In this document: in pieces, positions 478 through 64,000 of the stretch
How positions within the stretch are numbered: position 1 is the first letter of the stretch
Layout of the letters: every line of letters starts with the position of its first letter
Source: a virus
Lineage: Duplodnaviria; Caudoviricetes
Virus record (IMG/VR): IMGVR_UViG_3300021399_000103
Coordinates: 32,001-96,000 of that record
Strand: one strand, 5' to 3'
Length of the DNA stretch: 64,000 bases
Translations under genes and position numbers: made by a program
The notes under the pieces: generated by a model
The model's input: the letters and a program-made list of their open reading frames with translations, nothing else
Told to the model about the DNA's origin: nothing
The model's database searches: none

Positions 478-3400
478 ATGCCAAAACAGTTAAATGTTAA
501 TTTAGCGTTTACCGCAGATACTGCGCAAGCTAAACAGCAGATACAAGAATTGCAACAATCTTTAGCTAAATTATCATCTGAAACTATAAAAAATAATATA
601 GGAACAAAGATGACAGAAGATTTGCATAAATCAGTTACCGCAGCAAGTCAGCTTAAAGATATGCTACAACAAGCGGTTAATCCTAAAACTGGAAACTTAG
701 ATTTGTCTCGTTTTTCTGAGCAATTAAAAGCTAGTGGTAGAGATATTCAAAGTTATGCACAAGATTTAAATAATCTTGGTCCAGAAGGAACTAAAGCATT
801 TATGCAATTAGCTCAATCAGTAGCATCTGCTGAAGTTCCTATGCGTAGAACAAATGCACTTGTAAAAGAGTTTGGAACTACATTAATGAATGCTGCTAGA
901 TGACAATTTTCAAGTAGCATGTTGCATGGATTTATGGGTGCTATTCAAGGTGCTTATGGATATGCGCAAGATTTAAATAGATCTTTAACTGATATTGCTA
1001 TTGTTACTGGAAATTCTGTTGATAATATGGCGGCATTTGCGGATCAGGCAAATAAATCTGCCCAAGCTTTAAGTACAAGCACATTAGCTTATACAGATGC
1101 TGCATTAATTTATTATCAGCAAGGTTTAAATGATGAAGAAGTTCAAGCACGTACTGAAACTACTTTAAAAATGTCTAATGTTACTAGACAATCAGCAGAA
1201 GAAGTTTCAAGTTATATGACTGCTATTTGAAATAACTTTGCAGAAGGTTCAGATAATCTTGAGTTATTTGCTGATAAAATTACAGCGTTGGGAGCAGCAA
1301 CAGCTTCAAGCTCAAAAGAAATCGCTACTGGTTTACAACAATTCGCAGCGTTAGGTAGTTCTTTAGGATTGAATTATGATGATGCAGTTGCAGCGTTAGC
1401 TACGGTAGTTGCGCAAACAAGACAATCAGCTTCAACTGTTGGTAATTCATTTAGAACATTGCTACAAAGATTTGAAAGTTTAAAACTTGGAAAAACTCTT
1501 GAAGATGGCGTTGGTTTAACGAAATATTCTGAAGCATTAGCTAAAGTTGGTGTTCAAGTTCTTGATGTAAATGGTGAAATGCGTGACATGAGTGATGTTA
1601 TTCAAGATCTTGGCGCAAAGTGACAAACTTTAGGTAGAGAGCAACAAAATGCGTTAGCGCAAACAGTTGGTGGCGTTAGAAACTCTAATACATTGATTGC
1701 TTGGATGGATCATTTTGATGAATTTCAAAAAAATTTAGACATTGCGGCGAATGCAGAAGGTGCACTTGAAAAACAAGCTGAAATATATGCAGAATCTTGA
1801 GAAGCTGCACAAAAGCGTGTGCAAGCAGCTTGACAAGCGATATATCAAGATTTAATTGATGATAAATTTTTTATAACTATTCTTAATGGATTTGAAAAAG
1901 TTTTAAAAGGTGTAGATAATCTTATTGATGGAATGGGCGGTTTAAAGGGTGTTTTAGGCGTTGTTGGGGCTTTGATTACCACTGTTTTTGCCGATGGTTT
2001 AGCGAAAGGTATACAAAATGCAGTATATAATTTTAAAGTGTTTACTGGACAAGCACAACAAGATGCAGATGCTTTAGCTGTTCAATTTAAAAATGTTGCT
2101 GATCAAATGGGGCAAGATTTACAGAGTCCTACGGCAACAGCTGAAGTTGGAGTGTTAAAAGATCAGATTGATTTTGCTTTAAAATTAAGACAGGCTAGTG
2201 ATTCAATTACTGAAGCTAATAAACAGCAGTTATTATCTTTAAATGAAATTACCAAGCAATATGGTGCTGCTTATGTTGAAGCGATGAAGTTAAAAGAAGC
2301 AGCTGAAGATCAACGAGCTAACGCTGCAGGAAATGCAAGAGAGTATGCTGCAAATTTAGGAAATACAGTAAAAGAAAAATCTCAAAATAGAGCAAAAGTA
2401 GATTCTGTAATAAACTCTGAAAATTTAGATAAATTAGCAAGTGATTTTACTGCTAAACAAGCAGATTTAGGAAAATGAGCATCTAATCTTGCTGACACTC
2501 AAAATTTTGATGTATGAAAAGATTCTTTATTGCCTAATTTAGAGGCAGAATTTAAAGTAGTTATAGATCAAAGCGCTGAATTGCAGGATGCTTTTGAAAA
2601 TGTAAATAATGTTTTGTCTAATAGTAAATCAACAGATGAGGAAAAGGCTGCTGCATTACAGCAATTAGGAGAGAAATTTAAAGATGTTGCGAATAATAGT
2701 GATTTAGTTAAAGAACATATTGCAGATTCAATGAGTACAGCAGCTGTTGATATAGCTGGTGGACCAGGACAGGCTGCGAATGAATTAGCACAAAAGATGA
2801 AGGATGCAGCTAATGCTCATTTTGAATTAAAGGCAGCATCAGAACAAGCTGATAATGCACAAATAAATTATAATGAACGTTTAAGATTAGCAAAAGAAGA
2901 ATTCGAAAAATTAAAGGGCAAAGTGGATGAATATTCTACCTGTCTCGTAACTTGTGCAAGAGGAATATCTCAATTATGAACTGCCTTTAATTCTTTGGGA
3001 AAGGTTTTAGATACTTTAAATGATAAAGATTTAACCTGAGCTGAGAAAATAAGAACTATGATACCATCTTTAACAATGGGAATTCCTACATTGATTTCTG
3101 GAATTACTACTTTAGGTGGAGCATTTGCTTCTTTAGGATGGGCCGCAGAAGGAGCTACCGCTTCTTCAATGACATTCATGACGGCATTAACAGCAACACC
3201 TTTAGGTCCTATTTTACTCGCGTTAGGTGCGCTTGCTGGAGCCTGATATGCATTTGATAAAATTGTTTATACTAGTGAAGAAAGATTGGCTGATTCAAAT
3301 AAAAAGCTTGAAGAAGCTAATGAGGCTTTAAGTAAAGCTGAAGAGGCAGCACAAAAAACAAATGATGCTTATCAAAAATTAGTAGATACTTTAGATGGAT

Positions 3401-6400
3401 TTGATTCAAAAAAAGATGCTATTAATCAATTAATTGAAGGAACCACAGAATGAAAAGAGGCTATTGCTGATTCTAACTCAGAGTTATTAGCAGCATTAGA
3501 AATGTCTGGTCAATTAAGTCAAGCGAAATTATCTTATGGTAAAGGTGGATTAATAAGTGTTGATAATGCAGATGAATTAAAATCAAATGCTCGTTCTGAT
3601 AATATTGCGGCTGATATAGGGGTTGCGCTATCTAGAATAAATGTTTCAAATGAAGAGAGTAATCATGCGTTAATAGAAGCAGTAAATGAAATAAGAAATT
3701 TAAATGATCATGAAGCGTATCAACGTGGGGATATTTCTTATGACCAATTAATAGATTATAATAAAACTATTGGTAGACAATCAGATGAAGAATTATTAAA
3801 TACAGTCAAAGATTGAGCGCAACAAATTGTTGACAATGGATACGCAGGTCAAGATTTAACTAGAGAACTTATTGAAGATAGCAACGGTCAATTGGCTTTT
3901 TTAGAAGAAATTAAAGACAGAAAAGATGTTCTTCAAGCAATTCAAAAAGCTGCTGATCAAATAGCTGGTGCTGATAAAGAATCAGATGCTTATAAAAAAG
4001 AAGTTGGGCGAATGGCTGCAGATTCAGCCGGATATGATACGTCAGGAATGTCTGGTTCAGCTTTAGAAAATTTTTATTTAAAATTATATGAAAACCTACA
4101 ATCTCAAGCTCAAACTGAATGGGAGGGGATGGATCAAAATCAGCAATTAAAATATTTTGCTGAAGGATCTGGTGGTCAATATAAATATGATGAAGCTACT
4201 AGTGAATTAATAGAAACTGCATCTAGTAAAATTGTTGAAAGTTCTGAAATTGCTCAAAGTGAAATTAAAACTCTTGGACAGGCAGCTTTGATTGAAGAAA
4301 AGGCGAGTGCTGCTGAAGCTCAAGACTTAATAAAATATGAGACAGAGTCAATAAAAAAACAACAGCAAGATCTTTATTCTAAAGTTAGTAATAATTTTGG
4401 TGACCAACTGACAATAGAAAATGCATCTACTTATTCAGATAAAATGGATCAATGATCTAGTGAGCAGATGAATTTTGCAATTCAAACAGATATGTCTCAG
4501 TTTGAAACAATCGAAGAATTTATTAAATATGTTGAAGATGCATGTAAAGAAGAGCATCATATTGATTTTGAAGTTAATGCAGATGATTTAGTTAATTTTA
4601 AAGGAAAAACAGAAGATCTTAAAGCTGAGGTCGATACTTTATCTCATTTTTTACAAAATAATATAGATAAATTTCAAGATTTGAGCGAGCATATTGTAGA
4701 ATGTAAAGAGGCCGCTGATAAAGTAGCTTATTCATTTTTAAGATTTGATGATGCTATGCAAGATGTTTCTAAAAATTATAAAAAATGGAAAAAAGCTCTA
4801 GATAGTGGAGATGTTATAGAAATGAATAATGCTGTTCAGGATTTAAAGAAAACATACGGGAATTTATTGGACATGGATGGATCGCAATTATCCGATGATT
4901 TTCTACGAGATTCAAAAAATTTAGATTTAATGAATACAGTATTAACAGGAACAGAAGAAGAGGCTATAGCGGCATATGAAGAATTACAAAAAATAGCTTT
5001 TATGGATTTGGGAGAAAATTTAATTCCAAATCTTGATGAAAGTAAATGAGAAGAAGCTTATAATACAGTTACAGATGTTGTGGATAGATTAAACTTAAAA
5101 TTAGGTGATCCTTTGACTCCAATGAATGGTGTTGATTATACAAATACTGTTAATTCATTAAATGAAATGTTGGCAGCCGTTGGAGATGATATAGATGCAG
5201 CAAATGCTATCATGGCAGCATCTGGCTGATCAGGAGAATTAACAGATCAACCAGTAGATGTTGAAGAGCCTGATTTTAAAGAAGATGTAAATGTTGATGT
5301 AGTTGAAAAAGATATTCCATATGAAGGTGTTCATGTTGAAACTACAGATACTGATTTTACTCCAAGCACAACTGGAACTGTAAATGGTACCGCTTCAGAA
5401 GTTCATTTTTCAAAAGGTGCGCAGACAACGACTCAAAATAAAAAAACTGCTCATGTTCAAGCATATCAAATAAAATCAGATTCAGCACTTCATTATACTG
5501 GAGGAGCTGCCCCAAAAATAAAAAGCATGCCAGCACGAAACCTTGGATCTGGAAATGGCGGTAAAAAAGGCGGAGGCTGTTTTGCTTCTGGAACTTTAAT
5601 TACTACAAATCATAATTATAAAAATATTGAAGATGTCAAAATTGGAGACATTGTTTTATCGTATAATGAAAAAACTAAAAAGAATGAATATAGTAAGGTT
5701 CTTCAAACTATGATTCATAATGTATATGAAAAAATCTATAGTTTATTTGTTAAAAACGATAAACTTAAAGTCACTGGCAACCATAGATTTTTGGTAATTC
5801 ATAATAATGAACAAAAATGAATTGAAGCTGCTGATTTACAAGTTGGTGATTTAGTATTATTTGCTAATGGTTCATTACATCAAATTTCTAAAATTGATAC
5901 GCAATTAAGGTTTATGACCGTATACAATTTTGAAGTTTCTAATACTCATAATTATTATGTTGGAGAAAATCAAATATTAGCACATAATAAAGGCAAGAGT
6001 GGTAGCTCTAAAGAAAAAAAGAAAAAAGTAGAAAAGCCAAAAGAGAAGAAAGAAAATATTAAAGAAAAAGATCGTTATCACAATATTAAAGAAGCTATTG
6101 AAGATTTAAATACTGAAATGGATAGACTTAATAAAAATAAAGATCGAGCTTATGGTAAGCAACGTCTTAAATATATGGATGACGAAATTAAAAAGACTAA
6201 AGATCAAATTGGTTTGACTAAAAAATATATTGCAGAAATAAAGAATTATTCAAAAGTAGATAGAAAAAATCTTGAAGATGCGTTAGGTAAAGGTTGGACA
6301 GATATTAATACAGGAGAATTGGTTGGTGGTCTTGGTCTTTCTGATGAAGAGATTAAAAGTGCCTTTGATGAAAAAGGCATTTTGAAAGATTATGAAAGTT

Positions 6401-39119: not shown

Positions 39120-39138
39120 TTAAGAAAGGAGAAAAATA

Positions 39139-39360: not shown

Positions 39361-39390
39361 TTTAACTTAATGAAAAATTAAGTATAATAG
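39345..39390 (+). promoter_or_regulatory. Tripartite motif copy 5; putative phage late promoter
   Basis: ggtcag-N6-ataa-N16-attaa-gtataatag. Confidence 0.5.
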
Positions 39391-39394
39391 TTAA

Positions 39395-39426
39395 AGGGAG
39401 AGAGTTAATCTCTCTCCCTCATTTTA
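39395..39426 (+). terminator. Stem-loop (terminator or 5' stabiliser)
   Basis: AGGGAGAGAG-ttaat-CTCTCTCCCT with a weak T-tail. Confidence 0.6.
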
Positions 39427-39448
39427 ATAAAGATAGGAGGAAAACTAA

Positions 39449-41803: not shown

Positions 41804-41822
41804 TAGAAAGGAGGTTTAATTA

Positions 41823-42641
41823 ATGATTACAACTCCTGAAGAATATTTTAAATATTTATGGGGTATTGAAATCCAAGAACCTCTTTTAGATGAAAATGGT
41901 AATGAACAATTAGATGAAGAGGGAAATGTTATTATGGTGACAAAAAATCCTTATAATAACAAACCTCTTCTTTCTATTATATTACCATCTGATGAGAGAA
42001 CTTTTGATGTCGATCTTTCGTCAAGAACAATTTCAGTACCTACTTTTTTAAGTGTAGCAAAAGATCACAGAGCAGAAACAGTTTACTTTTTAGTAGATCG
42101 TTTCTTTGAATATAAAGATTTAGCAACAACATCATGTATGATTGAATTTATCAATGCAGAAGGTAAAGGTGGATTTTATCCAGTACCTTTCTATGACATT
42201 TCTTCATATCCAAGATATTTTTCTGAAGAAAATGGAGAACAGGTCGTGCATGAAGCCAAGATGATTATACCTTGGTGCATTGAAGGTGATGTTACTGCGG
42301 CCGCAGGTGAAGTTCAGTTTATTTTAAGATTCTATGAGTTAGATGAGACAAAAACTGAATTAGTTTATAATGTCAGAACACAAGTTGCTACTGGACAAGT
42401 TCTAGTTGGAATGGATCCAGGTGTTTTAGATGAGGCCGCTGCAGATTTAGAAGCTAATTTCGCACAACAGATTAATGATAAAATTGAACATGCAACAGCA
42501 ACAATTTATTGAACTGATTTGCCAGATAGCGAATTTAGGTCTGATTTTCAACCATCAAAATCAACGAAAAATTCTACAAATTATTCTAATGGACTTGAAA
42601 ATGCGTCACCAATGAGATTATGATTTAAGGATTCCGATTAA
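41823..42641 (+). CDS. BppU-like baseplate protein, paralogue of the upstream gene, 272 aa (TGA=Trp)
   Basis: Contains FDVDLSSRTISVP, AETVYFLVDRFFEYKDL and PWCI..AGEVQFILRF. Reads through TGA at 42510 and 42621 to TAA 42639-42641. Confidence 0.7.
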
Positions 42642-42659
42642 GGAATCCTTATTTTTTTT
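42626..42659 (+). terminator. Rho-independent terminator
   Basis: TAAGGATTCC-gattaa-GGAATCCTTA followed by T8. Confidence 0.85.
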
Positions 42660-42705
42660 GGTCAAATGGAGGAAAACAAATATATTGTTTTTTTAAGTAT
42701 TTTAG
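42660..42705 (+). promoter_or_regulatory. Tripartite motif copy 6; putative phage late promoter
   Basis: ggtcaa-N6-gaaa-N16-tttaa-gtattttag. Confidence 0.5.
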
Positions 42706-42767
42706 CAAAGAGAATTAACTCTTATAGAGAGTTTTATATATAATAAAGGAGAAAGGAGCGAGCGCAA

Positions 42768-45700: not shown

Positions 45701-45872
45701 TGTTGAGACAACTCCTACTGGTACTGCGGCAGCCCATGAAGGTATTGCTGATACTGGAGTTTATTTAACGACAACTGCTGGTCAAATAAATGCAAAAACT
45801 TATAAAGTAGATGAAGAAGTAACTTTAGAATATAATACAACAACGAAATCATTAGATTTTATTTTTGCATAG
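42768..45872 (+). CDS. Tail fibre protein 1, 1034 aa (TGA=Trp)
   Basis: Fibre motifs GLMSADDKIKLDGI, KSDVGLSNVTND and SHTHGKITNDG. Ends TLEYNTTTKSLDFIFA then TAG. Confidence 0.8.
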
Positions 45873-48130: not shown

Positions 48131-48142
48131 GGAGGTGCTAGG

Positions 48143-51067
48143 ATGGCACAATTAAAGGATACATTAATTTCTGGTGATTTGCGTGTCACTGGCACGATAT
48201 ATGGTGATGTTCCATTAAATGATTTGGTTGATGCTGATGATTTAAAAGCTATCGAAGCATTAAGTGGAACATCTGGTTTATTAAAAAAGACAGCTGCAAA
48301 TACCTGAACATTAGATACAAATGCTTATACAACAAGTTCTGGCGTAACTAGTGTTAGAGTACAAGCTACAAGTCCAGTAGTATCAAGTGTTAATACGGCA
48401 CAAACATCTACACTTAATACTACTATTAGTTTAGCTGATAATTATGGAGATACTAAAAATCCATATGCAAGTAAAACAGCACGATATGTACTTGCGGCGC
48501 CTGCTTCGGCGAACGGAGTGCCTACCTTTCGCGCACTTACCAATGCAGATGTAGGATTAGGTAATGTTGAAAATACAAAACTTTCAACATGAGCAGGTTC
48601 TACTAATATTACAACTCTTGGAACAATTACGACAGGTACTATTCCATGAGCTAATATTAGCGGTAAACCAAGCCAAGCTACTGCTTGACCTAATTGAAGT
48701 CAAATACAACAAAATGGTGCTGAAAATATTAATGAAGGCAATTCTGATTTAACTGATAATACAGAAATTTTTACTTCATATGCAAGTAATAATGGATTTG
48801 CTGATACAAATGCAAAAGGTGTTGTTTATCGTAGAGATGCTATTCATGTATATAATTATATAAAAGCAAAAACAGATACTTTATATGCGGCTAAGAGTCA
48901 TGCTCATGGCAATATTACTAATGATGGTAAAGTTGGTACAGCGGCTAATCAGGCAGTTTATACTACAACAAATGGCGTAGTAACGGCAGGAACATTGCCG
49001 ATTGCAGCAGGAGGTACTGGTGCAAGTAATAAACGCACAGCAGGATTAATTTATGATTGGACTGCAGTAGTGCAAGGACAAAAATGATCTAGACTCTGCT
49101 ATATTCCATGTTCTACATCCGTTACTGGTACTAATTTTATTTTAAATGTTCGAGGAACAAGAGGAAGTGTTGTTTATAATTATACCTTTATGATTACTAC
49201 ACATCATGCATCAAAATGCCATATTACAGCACTTGCTTGTTCAAATTATTCTGCGATAAAGATTAGAGGAGTAGTTGATTCTAGTGGAAATTGTTATATA
49301 GAATTATATGATGAAGCTAATAGTATTGCTTCAGGCACCACTCAAAGTGTATCTTGTCATTTATTCATTTTAACAAAGGGCACAACAGAGCCAACTTTAT
49401 ATACTGCCTTTACGGATGGTGCGACATTACCATCAAATTTTACTGCAGTGACTTTAGAATTAAAAGCAGCGGCTGGGATTCAAACTTCTGGAACATACTA
49501 TGGCACTTGGAGCGGTTCCGCAATTCCTGTTGCTAATGGAGGAACTGGAGCTACTACTGCAGCTGCCGCAAGAACCAATTTAGGTATTACTCCTGCTAAT
49601 ATTGGTGCTGCTACTAGTGGACATAATCATGATTCTACTTATGTTAATGTATCTGGTGATACTATGACAGGTGCTCTTACCCTTAGTGGAGCACCGACCG
49701 CAAATCTTCACGCAGCAACTAAGCAATATGTAGATCAATCATTTGCGGCTAATGACGCAATGATCTTTAAAGGTACTATTGGTTCATCTGGAGCTACAGT
49801 AACTGCATTGCCAGCTACGCACAGTATAGGTTGAACTTATAGGGTATTAACAGCTGGAACTTACGCAGGAGTTAAGTGCGAAATTGGTGATTTAATTATT
49901 TGTATTACTGATGGAACAGCTGCTAATGATGCGCATTGAACAGTAGCGCAAACTAATTTAGATGGTGCAGTAATTGGACCAGCTAGTGCAACGAGCGGCA
50001 ACATCGCATTATTCGATGGAACTACTGGTAAATTAATTAAGAATAGTAGCTATTCTCCAAGCAGTTTTTCCGCAGCGGGTCATACTCATAGTAGTATAGT
50101 AACTGTTGGAGATCAAAGAAATAACGATACAACCCCTAATAGTTATAATAATAATTTTATTTTTCAAGGACTAAAAACTAATAGTAAGATTGGGTCTCCT
50201 ACATCAGATAATTATTCTTACGTAATTGGTTTAAGAGGATGAAGTGACTCAAGTGGTGGTAATTCTCATGAATTGGCTTTTAATAATACTGGTATTTTTT
50301 GACGTAGCGGAGCAACAACAGCTTGAGGCAATTGATATCGTATATATACAACAGCAAATAAACCAACTGCCGCAGATGTAGGGTTGGGTAATGTAAAAAA
50401 TCAAGCAATTACAGTAACTTCTTCAAGTGTAAGCGATGGGAGTATTACTTTCAGTAAATATGAACATCCAACAACTTCTGGTAATAAGCATATTCCAAGT
50501 GGCGGATCAACTGGACAATTTTTAGGTTGAGATTCAGATGGAACTGCAAAATGAGCAACTCCACCTGATACTAAAAATACTGCTGGTTCAACTAATAGCA
50601 ATAGTAAATTATATTTAATTGGTGCTACCTCACAAGCTGCAAGTGTAACAACATACAGTGATGAAGAAGTATATACAACTAATGGTACATTAAGCGCAAA
50701 AATACTTTCCACTACAGCCGGTGTCAATGCAAATACGGCTAATTCTGGCACTGCTGGAGGTGTTTCTTTATATAGCACATCGCCAACTGATTATGGTGTT
50801 ACTATGCGTAACACTGGTACATCTTCAGGACAACTCGGAAAACATGGATATGTTCAAGGAGATTGGGCTGGGTATTTCTGCTTTACTGGAGCTACCAATA
50901 GAGGATATATATTTAGACATGCTGGCGCTAACGTAGCTTCAATTAGTGGATTAGGTCATGCTGTTTTTAATGGTTCAGTTACTGTTGGTGGTAATGCAGC
51001 AAATACTTCTGGTGGAAGAATGGAGTATGATGCAACAGTTGAAGCAATTGGATTTACATTTAATTAG
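48143..51067 (+). CDS. Tail fibre protein 2, 974 aa (TGA=Trp)
   Basis: RBS aggagg; starts MAQLKDTLISGDLRVTG. Contains PVANGGTGATTAAAARTNLG, GDTMTGAL and HAATKQYVD. Ends GRMEYDATVEAIGFTFN then TAG. Confidence 0.8.
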
Positions 51068-51135
51068 TTAAGGAGAGATTTGACTCTCCTTAACTTTTTA
51101 TGATATAATAAATAGAGAGAAAGGAGATCACTATT
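51065..51135 (+). promoter_or_regulatory. Terminator hairpin overlapping a sigmaA-type promoter and RBS (repeat copy B)
   Basis: Near-copy of 45870-45934. Hairpin AGTTAAGGAGAG..CTCTCCTTAACT plus a T-tract, TTGACT at 51080-51085, TGaTATAAT at 51101-51109, RBS gaaaggag. Confidence 0.75.
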
Positions 51136-53472
51136 ATGAGTTTGAAAGTTTGATTACCGCTTAATGGTGATCTTAAAAATTTAGGCTGTAGTGATATAAT
51201 AGCTACTAATAATGGGGCAACTGTTGATAATAATGGAAAGATAGGAAAATGTTATAGTTTTGATGGCGCCGATGATCGTATTTATGCTAATAATGTTTCT
51301 ATTTCTAATCAAGAAATGAGTGCATGTTGTTGAGTAAAATTTAATAATTTAACTAATAATAATTATCCTTATATTTTTGCATTAGGTAGTAATGTAAGTG
51401 GTACTAGTATTCAATTAGGATTAGCTTATTGAAAAACTGACGGTAAATTACATTTAGTTGGTCATGGTTCAGAAACAGCTTCTACATACGCCCCAATTTT
51501 AAACACTTGAACTCATTTATGTATAACAATAAAGGGGAATCAAACGTTATTATATGTAAACGGTGTTTTAAATTCAACAATAACAAATGCTAATTCGCCA
51601 AAAACCCAAACTTGTCTATGCATAGGAGCTAGACCAAATTCAACGGCAGGCGCAGGGACAGCAATAAGTTATCCAATGAATTGCTGTTTGAATGATTTTC
51701 GCATTTATGACCACTGCTTATCAGCATTAGAGATAAAAGAAATAAGTCAAGGTTTAGTATTACATTATAAATTAGATGGAGACACTCAACAAAATATTCT
51801 TACTTCAACATCTTCACAAACAAAAACAATTTCATCTACTGGAACAAGTGTTTATACTAGTTATTGATATATAGATGAGAAATATACTTCAGCAATGACA
51901 GAAGGAGCTTTGTTAACTGTAGAATATGATTATAGTGTAAATGATGTGACAGAAACAACTTCTTATTTATATTCACAATTTAATACTACAAGAGTTACTC
52001 CACATGAATCTTTAGATTATTCTACTTTAACGGCAACTACATTAGGTCATCATAAATGAACTTTTAAAGTCACTGCTGCGCAAGCCGATTATGCTACTAC
52101 TGCGCAATCTCGTATTAGGATAAGACTTATGAGTAGCAATCCAGGAGCATCTTTTACCATTTCTAATATTAGATTATATTTTGGAGAAGAAAAAAATCAA
52201 ATAGCAGATTCTTCTGGTTATAGAAATGATGGAGAAATAGTAGGAAATACAATAATTCAATCAAACTCTCCAAAATTTAATATGGCTACATATTTAAATT
52301 CATCGTCTCCAACAACAAATAATGATGTAGGATTAACATATATTCATTCTAATTTTGGATTAACAGCACCTATACAAATGTCGGTATGTTGATGAGCAAA
52401 ACCTGAAAATGGTTATGGTGGGACAACTAATCATGCTGCTTGATGTACATCAATAAATTCTTCACATCCTACTGATTATAACTCAACTGCTTTTCATCAT
52501 AGAGATGCTAAATTTGATATTTGTTTAAATTTAGCTTCTACAACATCTTTAAGTTTAACATTTAATAATTATACTAAAAATGAATGACATTATTATTGTG
52601 TTACTTATGATGGAAAAATAGCAATTTTATATAAAGATGGAGTTGAAACAAATAGAAGTACAATTAGTAGTACAGAAGCACCATTAAAAACTTTTACCAA
52701 TATTTTTATTGGTTATTCTAGAGCTGGTGGTGTTTGAAGAAAAACACTTGGCTCTTATTCTGATTTCCGCATTTATGTAACAGCTCTTTCAGCAGAAGAT
52801 ATTAAAAAATTATATCAAACTCCAATAGAAATAGATAAAAGTAATAAACTTCATTCTTTTGAATTTGATGAAAATGCTACTAATGATATTGAATTATTTG
52901 GTGGAAGATTGTGGACAAGTAGTTATGGTCAAAAGATTTTAAATTCAACGAATATGTTTATTAATTATAATACTAATGGAGAGCCAACTTTTTCTGGATT
53001 TTCATCAGCTGGTTCTGAATATATAAAAATAGAACCGGGCGGAAAAACATACTATTATGATACAGAGGTATCTATTGCCGCAGGTAATCAATTTTATATT
53101 GGAATTGAACGATATGATGTAGATAAAACTCCAAGGTCAAATAATGCTTGTGTGTATATAGTAAGCCAAAAACCAAGTACAGATTTAGTTCGAAAAAGAT
53201 TTTTTGGAACTGTAAATCTTGCAACTGATGGAACAAATACAACAGATACAATATCTTTAAGAGTTTTAAATAAATGAAGTGGTTCCACTAGTGATACTAC
53301 AGGAACTGCAACAATTCATTATTTAAGTTTAAGAGAAATAACTGGTAATCCTCAAGTTGCTTTATTAAAAAAGACAGGACAAGTTTTAACAAGCGAATTC
53401 ACAGAACGTGATGATATAGTATATTTTTATAAAAATGGATTTATTGGAAGTTCTGAAATGATAGAAAGATAG
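51136..53472 (+). CDS. LamG/concanavalin-like lectin-domain protein B, 778 aa (TGA=Trp); paralogue of 45935..48130
   Basis: MSLKV[W]LPLNGD; LNDFRIYDHCLSALEIKEISQGLVLHYKL; NE[W]HYYCVTYDG; SDFRIYVTALSAEDI. Confidence 0.8.
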
Positions 53473-53483
53473 GGGGTCAAAAG

Positions 53484-55871
53484 ATGGCATTTTTAAAAAA
53501 TTCGGTGGTCGCTGGCGACCTTCGTGTAACTGGAACAATATTTGGGGATGCAAATTTAAGTTCTATAAACGCAGATAGTACAGGTTTAGGCACAAATGGG
53601 CAGATTCTTAAATCTACTGGAACTGGAATAGTTTGAGCTGATGCTGCGAGTTCACATACACATGGTCAATATGTATTAAAAGCTGGAGATGAAATGACGG
53701 GGGCATTAGATATTAAAAGAACTACGAGTTTATCTCTGGCAATAGACAATAATTTAAAAATTGGTGCGACCCGTTATGATTTAAATTTTAATGTTAATAA
53801 TAGTACTGGTAGCGGTATTAATAATGGTAATGTAAGCGCAATTACTTGAGGTAAAGATGATGCTACTTATGCTGGAATATATTACCAATCTTCTAGTAAT
53901 TATGGTTCTCGTTTAATATTTGGAACCACTGGTTCTTATTCAAATGGTGCATATGCACGTATGATTATTCAAGCTAATGGTAATATAGGTATTGGGACAT
54001 TAACACCAAGCGTTATGTTAGATGTTAATGGAACTGGTAAATTTAAAGGTATTTCAAGTACAAATGCTATAAATATTGAACATTCTAATTCCGCAAAACT
54101 TACCGCAAAAGATACTACATCAACAGGTGAAGTATTCTATGGATTTGGCTCTGCTCATCAAAATCATGGAATTTATAGTTATGGTTATGCGCCGACTGCT
54201 TCAACTTGAACGACAGATGAAAAGTGAATGGTATATAGAGACTCCACTGGTAAAATTACCCTTAACGGCAATGCGACGACAGCAACTAAATTAGAAGCAG
54301 CTAAAACATTAACCATTGGTTCTAGTGGAAAAACTTTTGATGGTAGCGCTAATGTTAGTTGAACTCTTGCGGATATTGGTGCTGTTAGTAAATCGGGAGA
54401 TACAATGACTGGAGGCCTTACACTTTCTAATGGTTCTAGTGCGTATAATGACAAAGGACTATTGTTTACTCATGGTTCAAGAATTGGAGAAAATACTGGT
54501 GGTGATTTAGGTATTTATGCAGCAAGTGGATTATATATAAAACCTTCTTCCCCAACTGCTTCATCAGGTACTGAAGGTATAAGAATTACTGATGATGGAT
54601 TATATCCATGTGTTAATAATACTGAATCATTAGGATTAAGTAATTATAAATGGTCCAATGTTTATGCTACTACTTTTACTGGAGCATTATCTGGTAATGC
54701 TAGCACCGCCACTAAATGGGCAGCTGCACAACAAGTATATGTTAATTTAGCTTCTGCATCTAAAACAGCCACAATACAAGGTGGAAGTTCAACAGCTTCA
54801 GCTATTGGAGTAGATGGTAAATTACCGATAGCAAATGGTGGTACTGGTGCAGATACCGCAGCCGCTGCAAGAACAAATCTTGGAGCAGCGACAGGAAATG
54901 GAAGAATTTTCTATGGTACTTGTGACTCTGCAGCGTCCGCGGCAGAAAAGGCAGTAACTTGCGCAACTTATGATGCATTGACTGAAGGAGATATTGTTAT
55001 TGTTAATTTCAGTAATACTAATACTGCTGCAGTTGCAAATTTAAAATTAAATGTAAATAGTAAAGGCGCGAAGCCTATTAAAAAATTACATAATAGTACT
55101 GGTAATAATAATTTAAGTGCGGTTGGAGAAATAAATGCAAATGGCGTAGGAGTATTTTCTTATGATGGCACTAATTGATGTCTATTAAATGCTGATTATA
55201 ATACTACTTATACAATAACTTCGGTTTGATGTAATACTGCTGCTGGAACTGCAGCAAAAGCTAGTAGCAACGCAAGCTACTATGCTTTAAGACAATATAG
55301 CTATTTTGAATTAACATTGCGTTATGCAAATAGCGCACAAAGTGCATTGACTTTAAATGTTAATGGTACTGGAGCCAAACCAATTTATATTAATGGAACC
55401 GCTTCAAGCGCAAGTAATTATACTTTACCAGCAGGTAAATATTTGGTTTATTATGATGGAACTAATTATTATTTTAGAACAGATAATTATATTACCACTG
55501 GAAATATAACTGGGACTGCGGAAAATGTAACTGGAACTGTAGCTATTGCTAATGGTGGTACTGGAGCTATCACTGCAGCTGCCGCTAGAACTAATTTAGG
55601 TTTAGGTACATTAGCAACTAAATCCAGCATTGGAAATCATTCATATACTCCAGCTGGAGATATCACTGTAAGCGGAACAACATCAACGGCTACTGTTGTA
55701 AAGACTGTAACATTTAATCAAGTTATTACTAATGCAGAAGTTGCCAATGAAGTTTTGACAATTTCTGCGGGTGCTGCGGGAAGCAGTGCTAATCAAGCAG
55801 GCGTTCTTACTGGTAATCCAACTTATACATTTAGTGGAACACCTGCAACATTAACACATTCAGTTTCATAA
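53484..55871 (+). CDS. Tail fibre protein 3, 795 aa (TGA=Trp)
   Basis: Starts MAFLKNSVVAGDLRVTG, paralogous to fibre 2. Contains NGNIGIGT, GNATTATKL, two ANGGTGA..AAAARTNLG repeats and two LNVN..GAKPI repeats. Confidence 0.8.
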
Positions 55872-56055: not shown

Positions 56056-57996
56056 ATGAGCTTACAAGGATTTACAAATCACAAAGCAGAGACTCAAAAA
56101 ATTATTGAGGCTCATAAAAAAGATTTTAATTACAATACAGTAAAATCATTTTTACAATCAAAAGGTGGATATAAAGCCTATGTAAAATCATTAGGTGGCG
56201 TATTTGCTAAATATGTTGATTTTACTGGTAAAATTACAACAACAAAACAATTAGAAGAAATTGCTGATTATGTTTGAGGTTTATATGATATTTGAGGAGT
56301 AGATTATTCTAACGGATGTTCTTACACTTATTCAGAAAATATCTATAAAGCCTACGCAAAAGATGGTTCTCAATTTTATCCAAAAGAAGATCCTAAAAAA
56401 AGATTTAATATGAATTATGCGGCTTTTAGTTTTGGTAACGGTGAAGATTTACCTGGTGTAGATGAAATGTTAAGCAACCCTGATAAATATTACGCAGTTG
56501 TTAATTGCGGCCAGGGTCCGTTACAAGTATTGAAAAAAGCTGGATTATGTCCTAAATCTTTCCCAGATCCTGCTGAATATCCAGCTTATTGGAAATCAAA
56601 AGGATACAATTATACTTTAATCAAAAACGCAAAAGATCTTAAAGTTGGTGATATTATTTATGTTTTTAATAAAACTATCGCTAATAGAAGTTCTATTACC
56701 CAGTTAAATAACTGGCATGATGGCGGATATCATATCACAATGGTTGGCGAGCGCAATGATTTACTTGGAACTATCACCTACTTTGATTCAGGTCATGCTT
56801 ATACTTACTATGGAGAATATAGAAGTATTCGTAATATTGGCGAAAAGCCTTATGAATGAGGTGTAGACTGGATTGGTTTGAGATACAATTTTGGATTGAA
56901 GGAGGAACAAATGGATATTAGCAAATATAATGATTTACAATTAGCAAAAATGGTTTGAGAAGGAGCTTTAGGTTCTGGCGATACTCGTAAAAAAAATCTA
57001 GGGTCTCGTTACAATAGTGTTCAGCATTTAGTTGATTTAGGTAAAGATAAAATTAACGAAATTTTAAATGCTAAAACAAAAGGTCAACAATTAGAAATGT
57101 TAGCAGAAGCACAGCTTGGTATGGATGGAACATTACCTTGGGAAATGTTCGGATATAAAGATGAGTGGTGTAGCGAATTTGTAGCTTACTGCGCAAACTG
57201 TTTAGGATTTATCTCTGCTGGATTAATGCCAAAAGCTGACATTTGCTCTAAAGCACATGCTTTCTATAAGCCAAAAGGACAACTACATACAAAAGCTCAG
57301 TATACTCCAAAAATTGGTGATATTGCTTATTTTGGAGAAAATGGAGAAATGCATACTGCTATTGTAAAATCAGTAAATGGAAATACATTAACAACTATTG
57401 ATGGTAATCAATATGTTGATAAAAACACATGGCGCACTTCACATGTAGGAAGAATTAACTATAATATGAACGATAGTTATGTATGGGGATTTGCGAACCC
57501 GCTTAATGACGGCATAGATGCTAAATCCGCAATTAGATTAGCTATTGAAGTATTAGAAGGTAAATATGGAAGTGGCGATATAAGAAAGAATAATTTAGGT
57601 TCAAGATATACTGAAGTTCAGACTTTAATTGATAAAGAATTAAAGACAATGAGTGTTGCTGATGCTATTATTGATCTATTGGCTCAAGAAGTTTTAACTG
57701 GTTATTGGAGCAGTGGTGATACTCGTAAAAATAATTTAACAAAAGCTGGATATGATTATAGTAAAGTTCAAGCTAGAGTTAATAAATTAGTCGAAGATTC
57801 TAAACCAAAAGAAGGTTGGATTAAAGAAAATAATAAATGGTATTATTATAAGAATAATAAGAAATTAACTGGGCTACAATATCTTGAATATAATAGACAG
57901 AAGAATTGGTATTATTTTGATGCTAATGGAATAATGCAGACTGGAAAAGTTACAATTACAGCAACATTTGATTCTTCTGGAAAATTAGTCTCTTAA
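56056..57996 (+). CDS. Endolysin 1, 646 aa (TGA=Trp): NlpC/P60-CHAP-like domain, Cpl-7 repeat, CHAP domain, two Cpl-7 repeats, choline-binding-type repeats
   Basis: First catalytic domain: VNCG..DLKVGDII..YHITMV. CHAP: EWCSEFV..PKIGDIAYF..HTAIV..TIDGN. Cpl-7: GSGD.RK.NLGSRY..VQ. C-terminal repeats: GWIKENNKWYYY and WYYFDANGIMQTG. Confidence 0.85.
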
Positions 57997-58055: not shown

Positions 58056-59000
58056 ATGGCTTATGTTAAACAAATAAATGTTTCAAATACGGCATATGAT
58101 ATAAGAGCAAAAGCTTTGGGTGCTGCACAATTAGGTTCTGCTACCAGAGGAATTTATTTAACGAGCACTGGAGAACCAGCAGTGGTTGGTTGATATCCTG
58201 TTTATTGTACCATAGACGGAGGAAATAAAGCTAATTATCCATGACATAGATTTGCAACTTGTACAACTACTACAGGACAATATCAAGATTATGATGCTAT
58301 AATTATATTACGTTCAAGATATCATGGAGGGGCTTTTGGTATTGTAAAAGCGATGATAAGAACAAATAGTACAAACAGTGGAATGAACATGGATGTTGTA
58401 TGATTATATAGATATGGATTTGCTGTTAATGATATTTGTATGTCACCAAACGCAGGTACTTCTGGTCATAGTGTTACTTTTAATCTTTATGTAAAATGTC
58501 CTACGTATCCAAGAAGAATTGCGTATCTTATGGAAGGTTCTAATAAAGGGTGGAGTTTGATTAATTCTGCAGAAGCCAACGACACAACAGCAACAGATCC
58601 AAAAACAAGCTATGAAGTTTTTGCTAATGGGGGGATACCTAATTATAAGTATGCAATTGATAATGAAGGCAGCGCTTGAGTATTAAAATCTGGGGATACA
58701 ATGAGTGGAAATCTACATGTTGTCAATACTGCAAATAATACGGCCGGTTTAGCTATAAACATACAAACACAATCGTATAGTTTTGGTTTACATATGGGAA
58801 CTGGTGGAACAAATCATGGAATATATGATTGATCTACACCTGAAGGATGAATGATAGTAAGAGGTTCTGGCAATAATATTTGAACTAGTTTTAATGCAGA
58901 TACTTCTTCCGCTTCAATCAGAAATATCGCTTATGGAACAACTGCACCGAGTAATAGTTGAGGTGAAAATGGTCAAGTATATATTAGATATACTGCATAA
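58056..59000 (+). CDS. Short fibre-like protein, 314 aa (TGA=Trp)
   Basis: RBS aggagg. Contains LGSATRGIYL, VLKSGDTMSGNL and a C-terminal RNIAYGTTAPSNS[W]GENGQVYIRY. Confidence 0.65.
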
Positions 59001-59012
59001 TGAGGTGGATTT

Positions 59013-59723
59013 ATGGCAAATGCACAAATAGCTAGTGGAGTTTTTCGTATGTGAGGTGGTAATTGAAAATCAACTGAGGCAAATAACTGAGCATATTTAT
59101 ATTTAGTTGATCCAGCAGCAAATACTGTGGTTGTTGGAGGCAAAACGAAAAATTCAGAACCAGCAGGAGGAACAGCTATTGTAGATGGCACTGATTATTA
59201 TACGTTTAAACCAGATGTAACTTATAGTTATTGGTATATTCAAGAAGTTGATACTACAAATCATTATTATTGAATTAAACCTTGAAGAATGTATAATGTA
59301 TTTGCTTATCTTGAATGACCTTTGACTTATAATTCAAATCAATATTTTTATAATTCTGATTGATGAAAAGTAAATTGCACTGTTCAACGAAATACTAGTA
59401 ATAATGCCGCTAGATGATACTTTACCGAAACCACTAGTAGTTATACTACTTCAACAGTATATTACATTCAAAATGTGGATAATGATAGATATTTATGTGG
59501 CGGTACTAGTGATATGGGTTATAGCGCAGTTGCTAGAACTAGTAATGGCACTAGGGCAAAATGAGGCTTAAGTAGAGTATCTGCTTCTGCCTTAGGTAAT
59601 GAGGTGTGAATTAAAATTGGCGGTATTTGAAGAATAGGAATTCCTTATGTAAAAGCCACTGATGGTAAATGACATAGACGCGATACAACTCAAATAAAGA
59701 TAAGTAATGGAACTTGAAAATAA
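59013..59723 (+). CDS. Trp-rich putative lectin (ricin-B/beta-trefoil-like), 236 aa; absent from the standard-code track
   Basis: RBS gaggtg. About 14 in-frame TGA. Contains AR[W]YF..YYIQNVDNDRYL..AK[W] and a C-terminal V[W]IKIGGI[W]RIGIPYVK..GK[W] motif. Fills the intergenic gap exactly. Confidence 0.6.
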
Positions 59724-59725
59724 TA

Positions 59726-59771
59726 GGCCAAACTAAGATAATTTTGCCATCGCAATTTTTATAGATAGTAG
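59726..59771 (+). promoter_or_regulatory. Tripartite motif copy 7; putative phage late promoter
   Basis: ggccaa-N6-ataa-N16-tttat-agatagtag, followed by hairpin AGAACCAGT-aagag-ACTGGTTCT (59770-59792). Confidence 0.55.
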
Positions 59772-59834
59772 AACCAGTAAGAGACTGGTTCTTTTCAATG
59801 GAAAAGTTTTACTAAAAATGGAAGGAGAAAAATT

Positions 59835-60215
59835 ATGATGAATTACACAGGATACCCAGCTCCTAGCTATCCAAGTTATAATGCTATGAATATGGGTCAA
59901 CAGATGTATCCTCAACGACAAGAAGTTGTTAGGGTAAATGGTCAAAATGGTGCGAATGCCTACCAGATGGCGCCAAATAGTAGTATACTACTTCTGGATG
60001 AGACTGCACCAATTATTTGATTAAAGACAACAGATGGAGCATCATATCCAACAGTAACTGGATATACAATAACTCCTATTGAAACTCAAACTACAAGTAA
60101 AGTAAATACTGATTATTCTGCTCTTGAAGAGAGAATAGCAAAATTAGAGGAGGCATTCAATGCAAGGAAATCCGATGTTGCAGATGTTAAACCAATCAAG
60201 ACCATTAAACAATAA
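59835..60215 (+). CDS. Hypothetical protein, 126 aa (TGA=Trp), with a Y/P/Q/N-rich N-terminus
   Basis: RBS aaggag. Reads ..LLDETAPII[W]LKTTDG..LEERIAKLEE to TAA 60213-60215. Confidence 0.75.
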
Positions 60216-60411
60216 TAACGGTTTAATGAATATGATTGCGGCGTTTAAGAATTCGCCAAATCCGCAAGCCATGATAAGCAATATGATGGCTCAAAACCCT
60301 CAAGTTACTGGATTGATAAATCAATATGGGGGAGATCCAAAAAGTGCGTTTTACGCATTGGCGCAACAAAAAGGAGTCAACCCTAACGATATATTAAATA
60401 TGTTAAAATAA
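60160..60411 (+). CDS. Hypothetical N/Q/M-rich helical protein (83 aa)
   Basis: RBS gaggagg. Contains NPQAMI..GGDPKSAFYALAQQKGVNP. Confidence 0.75.
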   Translation: MQGNPMLQMLNQSRPLNNNNGLMNMIAAFKNSPNPQAMISNMMAQNPQVTGLINQYGGDPKSAFYALAQQKGVNPNDILNMLK

Positions 60412-60469
60412 CTCTTAAATGGTAAGACTTTTATCATTGAAAATCTTATTATTTAGGAGGAAAATTAAA

Positions 60470-61138
60470 ATGGAAAATGGAAGTTTAAGTGCTAGCGATG
60501 TTGCTTTATTAAGTGACCGTAATGGTTATGGCGACATGTGGGGCGGAAATTCAATGATGTGGATTTTTGCTTTATTAATTCTTGCTGGTGGCGGATTTAA
60601 TGGCTGAGGTGGAAATGGTTTTGCTAATGCTATTGGTTATGAAAATCTCGCAACACAGTCTCAAGTTGATCGTGGATTTGATACACAGAATATGATGGCA
60701 AATCAGAGAGAGACTCTCGCTGCTGTTAATGCTGGAACAGCACAGGCAGTAGCTGCTACAAATCAGACATTCCATGATACAATAAATGCTTTAAGCGATA
60801 AATATTCTGAATTAGCAAGAGACATTAGTGGTTTAGCAGTAGGTCAAGCTAATATGTTGGCTCAAGAAAATCAATGTTGCTGCCAGACACTTCGTGCTAT
60901 TGACGGAGTAAATTATGCAAATGCTATGAATACAGCTGCTATTAATGCTAATACAACAGAACAGACTCAAAAGATTCTTGACGCTATTACCGGCAATAGA
61001 ATGGCTGATATGCAGAATCAAATTAACCAGCTTCAGTTACAGCAAGCCGTTGCTGGCGTAGTTCGCTATCCAACAGCAAGTACATACTATGCAGGTTCAA
61101 ACCCATTCTGTAATTGCGCTTGCGGAGCAACACTTTAA
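60470..61138 (+). CDS. Hypothetical protein, 222 aa (TGA=Trp): Gly-rich hydrophobic N-terminus, coiled coil, CCC motif and Cys-rich tail
   Basis: RBS aggagg before ATG 60470. Contains WIFALLILAGGGFNG[W]GG, QCCCQT and NPFCNCACG. Confidence 0.8.
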
Positions 61139-61149
61139 TATAACAATCT

Positions 61150-61176
61150 AGGGGCAGAAATGCCCCTTTATTTTTT
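61150..61176 (+). terminator. Rho-independent terminator with a GNRA loop
   Basis: AGGGGCA-gaaa-TGCCCCT followed by TTATTTTTT. Confidence 0.85.
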
Positions 61177-61212
61177 AATCAAAGAAGGAAAAGTTTAGGA
61201 GGAATGATTAAA

Positions 61213-61623
61213 ATGTTAGAAGTTTATTCTAAAAATGTAACAACTGCGGAAAATGCTAGTATTCCGCTTACTACAGTCGCTTTACTAAAAGGTACAAGCA
61301 CACAATTATTGGGTACATCAACAATTCAATTAAATAAATGTGGGGTTTATGAAGTTACAGTATCTGGTAGCGTTATTGGTAGTGCTGCTGGAGAAATTGT
61401 CGTTCAGTTGGAGAAGAATGGAGTTGCGCAGCCGCAAGCAGTTTCATTCATTACAGCTGCCGATGCTACTTCACAAACACCGTTTTCATTTACAACATTA
61501 GTTCAGGTTCCTGATAGTAATTATATCAATTGCCCTTGCGCAACTACAACAGTAATTAGTTTAAGAAATGCTGGTATTGAAGCTACTTATAGTACTATTG
61601 ATGTAACAGCAGTTAGGGTATAA
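61213..61623 (+). CDS. BclA C-terminal/C1q-like beta-sandwich protein (136 aa)
   Basis: RBS aggagga spacing favours ATG 61213. Contains IQLNKCGVYEVTVS, VQLEKNGVAQP and FSFTTLVQV. Confidence 0.6.
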   Translation: MLEVYSKNVTTAENASIPLTTVALLKGTSTQLLGTSTIQLNKCGVYEVTVSGSVIGSAAGEIVVQLEKNGVAQPQAVSFITAADATSQTPFSFTTLVQVPDSNYINCPCATTTVISLRNAGIEATYSTIDVTAVRV

Positions 61624-61625
61624 TT

Positions 61626-62186
61626 ATGACAATAGAAGAGATTTATTCTGAATTATCAGCCCATATGATTAAAGGGTTAATGGTTCATAATCAAATGGCT
61701 AATTACTATTGTTTTCTTAATCTAAAAGGTTACGCAAAATGTCATACCTATCATTACTTATGTGAAAATAAAGATTACATGGAATTAAATCATTACTATC
61801 ATAGGCATCATAACAAGTTAATAAAAGAAAAACCTGTTACTGATCCTAAGATTATTCCTAACTCTTGGTATGCATATGTGCGCGCGGACGTTGATGCTAC
61901 TACAAAGCGCAACGCTGTAAAAACAGGACTTGAAAAATGAATTGATTGAGAAGAAGATACATTACAGCTTTATTCTAAAATGTATAAAGAGTTGTTCGCT
62001 CTTGGCGCAATTGCTGATGCTAAATATTTAGAATGTTTAATTGCTGATGTTAGTGATGAATTAGCGCAAGCTAATTCTTTATATATTAAGAAAAAATCTA
62101 CTGATTTTGATATTGAATCAATAATGGGAGATCAACAGGAAAAAGCTGAAAAATACTGACAAAAAATAACAGAAATTTGGAGGTAA
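61626..62186 (+). CDS. Ferritin-like helical-bundle protein, 186 aa (TGA=Trp)
   Basis: All-helical pattern with His/Glu ligand candidates (HMIKGLMVH, GYAKCHTYHYLCE, [W]ID[W]EEDT, DVSDEL). TAA at 62184-62186. Confidence 0.6.
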
Positions 62187-62190
62187 TAAC

Positions 62191-63777
62191 ATGAGCTTAA
62201 AAGGGATCGATATTAGTAATTGGCAAAAAAATATCAATTTATCTGCTATTAATGCCGATTTCATTATCGTAAAATCTTCAGAAGGGATTGGTTGAACTGA
62301 TCCAAGTTTTTCAAAATTATATAATGCGGCTAAAAATACAGGGAAAAAATTAGGGGTATATCATTTTGCTAGACCAACAGCTAATAATGATCCCGTTAAA
62401 GAAGCCGATAGCTTTCTTTCTGTTATTAGAAAAGAAGATGTTATCGGCAAAGCAATTTTGGTTTTAGACTGAGAAGCTGAAAATAAACAAAATACTGTTT
62501 GAGCTAAAAAATGGCTTGATCGTGTTTATGCGCAAACTGGTGTAAAACCTATGATTTATATGAGCGAAAGCGTTGTTAATGCTTACAATTGAAGTGCTGT
62601 CGCTAATGCGGGATATGCGCTTTGAGTTGCTAAATATAGAGATAATGCTGTTGATTATAATTATAATATGTCTAATGCTGGAACTGCTCCAAAAGTCAAA
62701 CATTGAAAAGAATATAAAATGTGACAATGAACTTCAGCTGGTATTTTAAATGGATATAGCGGAAGATTAGATTGTAATGAGTTTTATGGAACGGCTGCGG
62801 ATTGAGATGTGCTGGCCGGTAAAACGGTCGCACCAGCCCCGGTTAAGAGTTCCTACACAGCGCCGGGCGCATACCTAACTCCGCAAGCATGATACAATAT
62901 GACTATTGGGAAGGGGTATAATGTTGATGGCGCATATGGCAACCAATGTTGGGATTATTTTGCTTATTTTATTAAGTATTTTGGTCTTGGATTAAGTACT
63001 TATTGTGCTACTACTGGATATGTAATTGATTTATGGAATCTAAGAGATAGATACAATTATTCAAAACATTTTACATATATTACAGATCCAAAAAAACTTC
63101 AAAATGGAGACTGGTTAATTTGATCTAAAGGTTCATCTTGCCCATTATCACATGTTGGTATGTATTGGAACGGTCAAGTTGTAGGACAAAACCAGGGTGG
63201 TTTAAGATATGTCAATGCGCGCACCTTAAAATTAGATATAGCCGGCGCATTTAGATGGAAAGCTTGGGAAACAGAAACTCAAAAAGAAACAACTGATTTA
63301 TCCAAGTATACAGATCAGCAATTAGCTGAAATGGTATTACAAGGCACTTTTGGAAATGGAGATATTCGTAAAGCATTACTTGGTTCAAGATACAGTGCAG
63401 TCCAAAAGATTGTAAATAATCTTGTTTCTAATAAAAAATCAAATGAAGAAATTGCTAATGAAGTACTTCAAGGCAAGTGGGGCAATGGAGATGAGCGTAA
63501 AAAGAAGCTCACCGCTGCTGGATATAATTACTCTACTATTCAGTCATTAGTTAATAATTTAGTAAAAAATCAGACTAAAGTTAATAAAACATTAAAGGTT
63601 GGCGCAAAAGTTAGAATTAAACAAGGCGCTCTTGATTTAAATACTAAGAGAAAATATGCTTCATTTGTTTATAGCACAAATTATATTGTAAAATCTATGA
63701 GTAATAATAGAATCGTATTTGGAACACCTTCTGTCGTTATTGGCGCAACCGATAAGAGTAATATTATTTTAATATAG
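62191..63777 (+). CDS. Endolysin 2, 528 aa (TGA=Trp): GH25 muramidase, CHAP domain, two Cpl-7 repeats, C-terminal SH3-like region
   Basis: GH25: KGIDISNWQ, KLGVYHFA, LVLD[W]E, KPMIY, Q[W]TSAG, LDCN. CHAP: VDGAYGNQCWD..GDWLI..SHVG..GQNQ. Cpl-7: GKWGNGDERKKKLTAAGYNY..IQ. Confidence 0.9.
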
Positions 63778-63787
63778 GAGGAGCGAT

Positions 63788-64000
63788 ATGGAGATTTATA
63801 GCTTATTAGCAATATCTTTGTTAATCGAAGGATTGATTACTTATGGACAAACAATAATTAAACAAAAAAAGATTCAATGACAAATTGTAGTGGCAATTTG
63901 TGTGGCTTTCATTTTTTGTTATAATTCAAACATTAATTTATTTCCAATGTTAGGATTTACTGAAAAGTATCCAATTATTGGCACTATTGCAACAGCGATT
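63788..64000 (+). CDS. Putative holin, 3'-truncated (TGA=Trp)
   Basis: RBS aggagga. Small hydrophobic protein (LLAISLLIEGLITY..Q[W]QIVVAICVAFIF..IIGTIATAI) directly after the endolysin. Confidence 0.7.

Follow-up and report, generated by a model that had tools for sequence, protein, structure and literature searches.

A candidate RF2 antagonist encoded beside an intron-split tRNA-Trp(UCA) gene in a TGA-recoded gut phage

The Agate phages read TGA as tryptophan in their structural and lysis genes and not in their replication genes, end few genes in TGA, show the GC skew of two replichores, and belong to a clade that mixes genetic codes 11, 15, and 4, in which a TAG-recoded relative encodes release factor 2 (RF2) (Borges et al., bioRxiv 10.1101/2021.08.26.457843). 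Of the code-4 genomes, only 35% had a recognized TGA suppressor tRNA; few genomes carried release factors or synthetases, and unknown molecules were suggested as the means of overcoming the host release factor (Borges et al., bioRxiv 10.1101/2021.08.26.457843). The 64,000-nucleotide stretch analyzed here (the window) comprises bases 32001-96000 of the 176,419-bp virus record IMGVR_UViG_3300021399_000103 (C1; window coordinates are C1 minus 32000). Its source is a large gut phage, putatively of Firmicutes type, that resembles the Agate phages in all of these respects, as judged by these features, and the recoding alone is of this already published kind. Whereas the Agate paper reports neither an intron-split suppressor nor an RF2 antagonist, this phage has a tRNA-Trp(UCA) gene split by a group I intron and, in the same unit 100-1,000 bp past the window, a gene for a 58-aa protein of no known family. 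The latter is what is new here: modeling predicts that it binds RF2, which makes it a candidate RF2 antagonist, and thus a candidate for the missing factor.

Two further systems invite comparison. The Jade module combines a suppressor tRNA with tryptophanyl-tRNA synthetase (TrpRS) and RF1 (bioRxiv 10.1101/2021.08.26.457843). Like it, the present unit is written in the standard code, lies beside lysis genes, and would supply the switch; unlike it, the unit has no detected RF1 or TrpRS, includes the 58-aa protein, an Hsp20-like gene, and the split tRNA, and is downstream of the lysis genes. Lak megaphages are likewise recoded and carry introns in tRNA genes, but these lie in sense-codon tRNAs (Tyr, Thr) and were called enigmatic, and Lak phages recode TAG and encode RF2 (PMC6784885).

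A first-pass annotation, made from the letters of the window, had proposed that its whole tail and lysis region uses TGA as tryptophan. The comparison of coding densities bears this out: counted over the window from open reading frames (ORFs) of at least 100 aa, coding cover rises from 0.525 under table 11 to 0.968 with TGA as sense, against 0.562 with TAG as sense. TAG and TAA were rejected as the recoded codon on covers of only 0.56 and 0.60 (the latter on the + strand). All window genes lie on the + strand, and in-frame TGA occurs in 21 of the 25 genes of at least 100 codons, which together hold 209 TGA and 93 TGG codons (208 TGA if the tape-measure gene starts at 478); the word "whole" is thus too broad by the four genes starting at 15434, 22497, 29522, and 61204, which have none. 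As the annotation had stated, the rebuilt genes end in TAA (21) or TAG (4), never TGA, and a GGAG-type ribosome-binding site follows nearly all of them. Tryptophan makes up 1.49% of residues when TGA is counted and 0.46% when it is not. The conserved tryptophan sites that had been singled out are all in-frame TGA codons, namely those of the HINT domain (5818), the GH25 domain (62470), a LamG domain (46295), the FLRGDGT-W motif in the gene at 28638, and IGG-W, found twice in the gene at 9250.

Aligned homologues give the meaning of the codon. Of the 1141 cells that 120 homologues fill at the 11 TGA columns of the GH25 lysin, 887 are W, 195 are Y, and none is G; W makes up 100% of seven columns, whereas its background frequency is 0.6%. 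Reading TGA as glycine (code 25) was discarded since Gly occupies none of these columns. When 13 head-region genes were compared with 80 related viral loci, TGG stood opposite the phage's TGAs in 868 cases and TGA in 191, with every other residue far behind. The columns of aligned homologues, which could have refuted a tryptophan reading, thus confirm it. Under code 4 the Pfam domains of the tape measure with its HINT domain, two LamG proteins, a CHAP/CW_7 hydrolase, and the GH25/CW_7 lysin are intact, and TGA is not shifted toward gene starts relative to TGG (p 0.29). Judged from these alignments, TGA is Trp in the late genes.

The early genes are written differently. The late arm (+ strand, C1:15.7-97.5 kb) has 238 TGA and 123 TGG codons, whereas the early arm (- strand) has 201 TGG and 21 TGA, 4 of the latter in falsely extended leaders and the remaining 17 confined to a GIY-YIG nuclease, a Mom-family gene, and an amidase (17/201 vs 238/123, Fisher p 2e-47). 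Early genes therefore read alike under both codes. Other two-fold codon boxes are A-ending at 70-93% in both arms, and because the early arm is almost only TGG despite this bias, the host is taken to use the standard code; had it used code 4, TGA would have become common in the early genes. The rival possibility that the host itself uses code 4, leaving the switch unneeded, is most improbable. Walled code-4 gut bacteria do exist (Eggerthellaceae; bioRxiv 10.64898/2025.12.01.691617), which weakens the cell-wall and lysin argument by which the first-pass annotation had reached a standard-code host, and of 75 early ORFs a single one has TGA as its stop. Against it stand the scarcity of sense TGA in early genes, the use of codes 11, 15, and 4 among relatives, and the presence of RF2 in all five assembled genomes having contigs that match the intron pattern. 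That this is a TGA-recoded phage of a standard-code host is almost certain. The CW_7, choline-binding, and CHAP domains may hint at a Firmicutes host, as may the nearest cultured phages, which infect Bacillota. Terminase relatives use codes 4, 15, and 11, with the phage in a TGA clade nested among TAG-recoded phages, one of which encodes RF2 (L218:1066-2148); the nearest named cellular relatives of this RF2 are from Oscillospiraceae. A sizeable RF2 family (P0245-P0282) is related to it.

A tRNA search of the window gave none, in agreement with the earlier reading of it, and the suggested search beyond the window found tRNA-Trp(UCA) 747 bp past its end. The gene belongs to a TGA-free unit that directly follows the last late gene, is preceded by a terminator-like hairpin, and has a promoter kept in relatives (Table 1). 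Among the switch genes sought in the rest of the genome, the UCA tRNA and a candidate RF2 antagonist were thus found and RF1, RF2, and TrpRS were not, with no PF00472 or PF00579 match in a genome rated 94% complete and bearing a 130-nt end repeat. ARAGORN finds the tRNA with intron search and no UCA tRNA without it; its intron mode miscalls the intron end because the P9 hairpin mimics the anticodon stem. Removal of the intron at the bounds given in Table 1 yields a perfect 73-nt cloverleaf with anticodon UCA. A Ser(UGA) reading of the split gene was rejected, because with the correct 3' exon the tRNA folds as a class I cloverleaf of the Trp kind. The tRNA carries the bacterial tRNA-Trp identity elements (PMC9976931), namely G73, A1-U72, G2-C71, G3-C70, G4-C69, C35, and A36, with U rather than C at position 34. 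E. coli TrpRS distinguishes the base at position 34 by its size and would not have to exclude U34 (PMC12135181). By analogy with the E. coli TrpRS-tRNA structure, this suggests that U34 is tolerated, in keeping with the finding of no TrpRS gene in the phage. In the phage's tRNA cluster, the one Trp-like element with a CCA anticodon is degenerate and below the Rfam cut-off, and from its sequence the UCA gene seems to be the single sound Trp tRNA that the phage has. It is very probably the TGA decoder.

The 58-aa protein has no known family match, and searches of a viral library, the Atlas, and PDB sequences gave nothing clear. Its distribution follows the UCA tRNA. In 18/18 viral loci with a close homologue a UCA tRNA lies downstream, 14 with the intron and 4 without, and six distant homologues, picked blind to context, lie within ~10 nt of a UCA tRNA, with a TrpRS gene next in one. 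On a 1.8-kb contig (L290:363-1662) a homologue, tRNA-Trp(UCA), and TrpRS form a three-part unit. Among 40 phage records, full-length matches occur in six, all TGA-recoded; TAG-recoded and standard-code records, eight of them rated 100% complete, gave short weak pieces at most. On the terminase tree the carriers are not monophyletic (approximately unbiased test, p 0.017, one model). In the sequences sampled, these loci show a tight link between the 58-aa family and UCA tRNAs.

The fold is predicted with high confidence (pLDDT, the predicted local distance score, of 95) as beta-alpha-beta-beta-beta, with 4 K/R against 10 D/E residues and a chain that ends in a beta strand without a basic tail. 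A fold search gave no match (best Z 3.7), and RelE-like rows (Z 2.8-3.4) were weak and not trusted. The complex was modeled with an RF2 from an Oscillospiraceae-like stand-in, chosen as the nearest named cellular relatives of the clade's RF2, and scored 0.69, while the best of three controls scored 0.00; by counts that are approximate with our own alignments, 58 of 80 solved complexes attain this mark, as against 2 of 110 mismatched pairs. The runs agree in at least 91% of contacts, with partner pLDDT of at least 88. The modeled contacts on RF2 are mainly residues 199-203, 213-220, and 321-343, flanking the SPF motif (206-208), and E15, F19, and T57 of the 58-aa protein, among the most conserved of its family, touch RF2 in the model. 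Five other bacterial RF2s carry the same residue at 20-23 of the 24 contact positions on RF2, and their RF1s at 6-10. The protein is thus predicted to sit on the RF2-specific decoding face, where a compact acidic domain would be likelier to block than to help.

ArfA and BrfA are small ribosome-rescue proteins that touch the domain 2/4 sheet of RF2 near the SPF motif. The predicted site presumably overlaps that of ArfA, and it is this coincidence that lends some weight to a reading in which the 58-aa protein binds RF2 as a rescue or redirecting factor rather than a blocker. That role is unlikely: unlike ArfA and BrfA, the phage protein is compact and acidic, has no basic C-terminal tail to enter the mRNA channel, and is tied to UCA tRNA genes, and the phage has its own tmRNA. 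ArfA and BrfA are absent from the sequence and fold matches listed, searches that an unlisted family could escape.

In a second rival reading, the suppressor tRNA beats RF2 by abundance alone, and the 58-aa protein is a passenger or aids tRNA processing, splicing, or charging. In its favor, two near-complete TGA-recoded phages (G039, G045) have a UCA tRNA and no detectable homologue, the 58-aa gene always adjoins the tRNA gene, and TGA- and TAG-recoded relatives alike make little or no use of their recoded codon in the genes at scaffold, capsid, and tail-tube positions, as fits imperfect read-through. However, a gene with 22 TGA codons would give 10% full-length product at 90% read-through per codon, 32% at 95%, and <1% at 80%, and genes with 22-24 TGA would need ~95% or more. 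Because of this demand, and because no release factor gene was found, more than the tRNA appears to be needed; such genes could hardly be made in useful amounts unless RF2 were largely kept away. The RF2 model lies well above its controls, and a splicing role is unlikely since homologues also stand beside intron-less tRNAs. Action by the tRNA alone is doubtful on balance, although it deserves to be taken seriously.

RF2 antagonism by the 58-aa protein is moderately favored on the strength of the model, and it is with only a little better than even confidence that we see in it the founder of a family of phage RF2 antagonists that travel with opal-suppressor tRNA genes. Several points weigh against both. 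The RF2 is a stand-in for that of the true host, and none of the three controls was RF1; the pass of the model could partly reflect likeness to solved RF2 complexes; the contact residues would be kept for decoding anyway and so lend no support of their own; and a protein that binds RF2 does not necessarily block it. The link to the tRNA could reflect one cassette moving as a block, and G039 and G045 indicate that the protein is not universal. The literature searched, whose coverage leaves out most subscription journals, yielded neither an RF2 inhibitor from a phage nor a suppressor tRNA interrupted by a group I intron.

The explanation that we lean toward, by a modest margin of belief, is that a lytic phage, growing in a Firmicutes host with the standard code, uses a change of code to gate the production of its late proteins. 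The TGA-free unit, whose promoter is of host type by consensus, would be expressed at once; the intron would splice itself out to give tRNA-Trp(UCA), which, from its identity elements, host TrpRS should charge. The 58-aa protein is predicted to bind the stop-codon-reading face of host RF2 and would keep it off UGA, while RF1 would still terminate phage genes at TAA and TAG. UGA would then be read as tryptophan and full-length tail and lysis proteins made, which could also time lysis. If so, a tRNA that reads UGA and a protein that holds off host RF2 would be the missing switch of TGA-recoded phages, and a protein that blocks RF2 selectively would also serve code expansion at UGA. With a candidate, a predicted RF2 surface, and residues named, the question becomes approachable in a laboratory strain and without culturing the phage, and the splitting of the gene goes some way to account for the many code-4 phages in which suppressor tRNAs escaped notice.

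A consensus sigma-A promoter (C1:15649) also stands at the start of the late arm, the first gene of which carries three TGAs at sites mostly Trp in relatives; the code may for these reasons be the main late gate. The label "sigma factor" for this gene was set aside, as it comes from PHROGs and phage annotations only and Pfam gives no match. The three early-arm genes with TGA (L004:5667-6635, 9288-10430, and 16578-17234, for the GIY-YIG nuclease, the Mom-family DNA-modification gene, and the amidase) are probably made only after the switch, given the codons they carry. In TGA-recoded relatives, 0/110 Trp codons are TGA in the genes at scaffold, capsid, and tail-tube positions (C1:23155-26110, 29357-30415), identities assigned by position only, with no confirmation of the capsid gene from family or PDB searches. 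Genes at the same positions in TAG-recoded relatives are nearly without TAG, and most neighboring genes have 40-80% TGA, which suggests that read-through is costly for abundant proteins.

The intron resembles the IC3 introns of tRNA genes, of type Leu.3Ug (bioRxiv 10.1101/2020.01.27.920355), and the tRNA-fMet intron with I-Ssp6803I in its place after U34, its terminal G, its P1-P9 core, and, within the phage clade, an optional PD-(D/E)XK endonuclease (PF11645). It differs in sitting in an opal suppressor and in a P1 U-U mismatch in the phage clade. The PF11645 endonuclease is presumably linked to I-Ssp6803I. The intron is the genome's only match to RF00028, at 22.7 bits (E 9.5e-5) against a cut-off of 50, and a local Rfam scan did not pick it up; 18-20 bits were used for tRNA introns by Williams (bioRxiv 10.1101/2020.01.27.920355). 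Across 10 copies from different phages, 97% of cells are paired and 24/42 pairs have changed on both sides, as compared with 23-46% pairing in slid controls. The core helices P3, P4, P6, P7, and P8 and the flanking P2, P9, and P9.0 are present; P4 and P7 are nearly or wholly invariant, while P2, P3, P8, P9, and P9.0 covary. By sequence, the U at -1 pairs with G in P1 and the last base is G. Covariation between the copies thus shows the structure, and from it we infer self-splicing.

In two relatives the same locus holds an intron-less UCA tRNA, which in one of them shows the exact predicted junction; a third relative has such a gene within its tRNA cluster. Across collections, 37 distinct split UCA tRNA genes were recovered, 15 with long introns, and the two long introns checked both encode a PD-(D/E)XK endonuclease. 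Because intron-less relatives are also recoded, the intron is likely to be a mobile passenger, one that conceals the tRNA gene. It could instead time the code switch by its splicing, a role compatible with the mechanism proposed above and rather unlikely: the intron is kept in 14 of 18 close-clade copies, and a U-U mismatch beside the U-G splice pair of P1, together with the capacity of the first intron bases to pair with the anticodon stem in this clade, could slow splicing, but the same gene is intron-less in recoded relatives, and the endonuclease in some copies and the related introns in tRNA-Leu(UAA) genes are expected of a mobile element. These related group I introns, read by eye, stand at the same anticodon position in TAG-recoded, TGA-recoded, and standard-code relatives (L152, L153, L156, L163) and are a possible source of the UCA intron.

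The tRNA of this phage is short-armed. Among the UCA tRNAs of relatives (L050, L051, L048, L174, L176, L219-L270), a long variable arm occurs in 19 of the 37 distinct split ones, and in 17 of these 19, as well as in two intron-less genes, its loop has UCCA, forming a copy of the normal Trp anticodon stem-loop. A hairpin 7-10 nt 5' of the tRNA (L003:2711-2740), which varies in sequence and keeps its pairing in the phage and its relatives, may be a processing signal. Some 26 tRNAs and the tmRNA (transfer-messenger RNA) are clustered elsewhere in the genome (L005:7114-20000, on to C1:155255).

Table 1. Genes of the window (window coordinates) and features of the unit past its end (C1 coordinates).
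Feature	Position	Strand	Remarks
Tape measure protein, 2885 aa	478..9135	+	Internal HINT domain; 22 TGA / 7 TGG
Large tail-region genes, 2055/1223/920/1901 aa	9250..28544	+	24/17/14/18 TGA; no Pfam match; tail or baseplate role presumed from position
Fibre-like and accessory genes	28638..45872	+	TGA use uneven
Gene within fibre-like block	29522-31195	+	0 TGA / 3 TGG
Gene with BspA-type leucine-rich repeats	31317-39119	+	12 TGA / 19 TGG
Gene within fibre-like block	39449-41803	+	1 TGA / 9 TGG
Two LamG-domain proteins, fibre-like gene after each	45935..55871	+	48 TGA / 7 TGG in total
Cell-wall hydrolase	56056..57996	+	CHAP, CW_7, choline-binding repeats; 4 TGA / 11 TGG
Small genes	58056..62186	+
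Small gene	59013-59723	+	14 TGA in 236 codons
Endolysin, GH25 and CW_7	62191..63777	+	11 TGA / 9 TGG; TGA columns Trp in homologues
Last late gene, 96 aa	63788..64000, on to C1:96078	+	2 TGA; hydrophobic; holin-like by position
Promoter TTGACT-17-TATAAT	C1:96098-96126		Sigma-A-type by consensus
58-aa candidate RF2 antagonist gene	C1:96150-96326		First gene of unit
Hsp20-like gene	C1:96340-96714
tRNA-Trp(UCA)	C1:96747-97015
Group I intron	C1:96781-96976		196 nt, inside tRNA-Trp(UCA)
135-aa gene	C1:97059-97466
Terminator	C1:97467-97508

Two further features of the window may be added. The HINT domain of the tape measure (window 5580-6000) begins with Cys and ends in His-Asn followed by Lys rather than Cys, Ser, or Thr, and by these residues it may cleave rather than splice. 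Near-identical intergenic stretches, each with a hairpin and a sigma-A-like promoter, precede both LamG genes (window 45885 and 51080), and this likeness suggests that the LamG and fibre module was duplicated.

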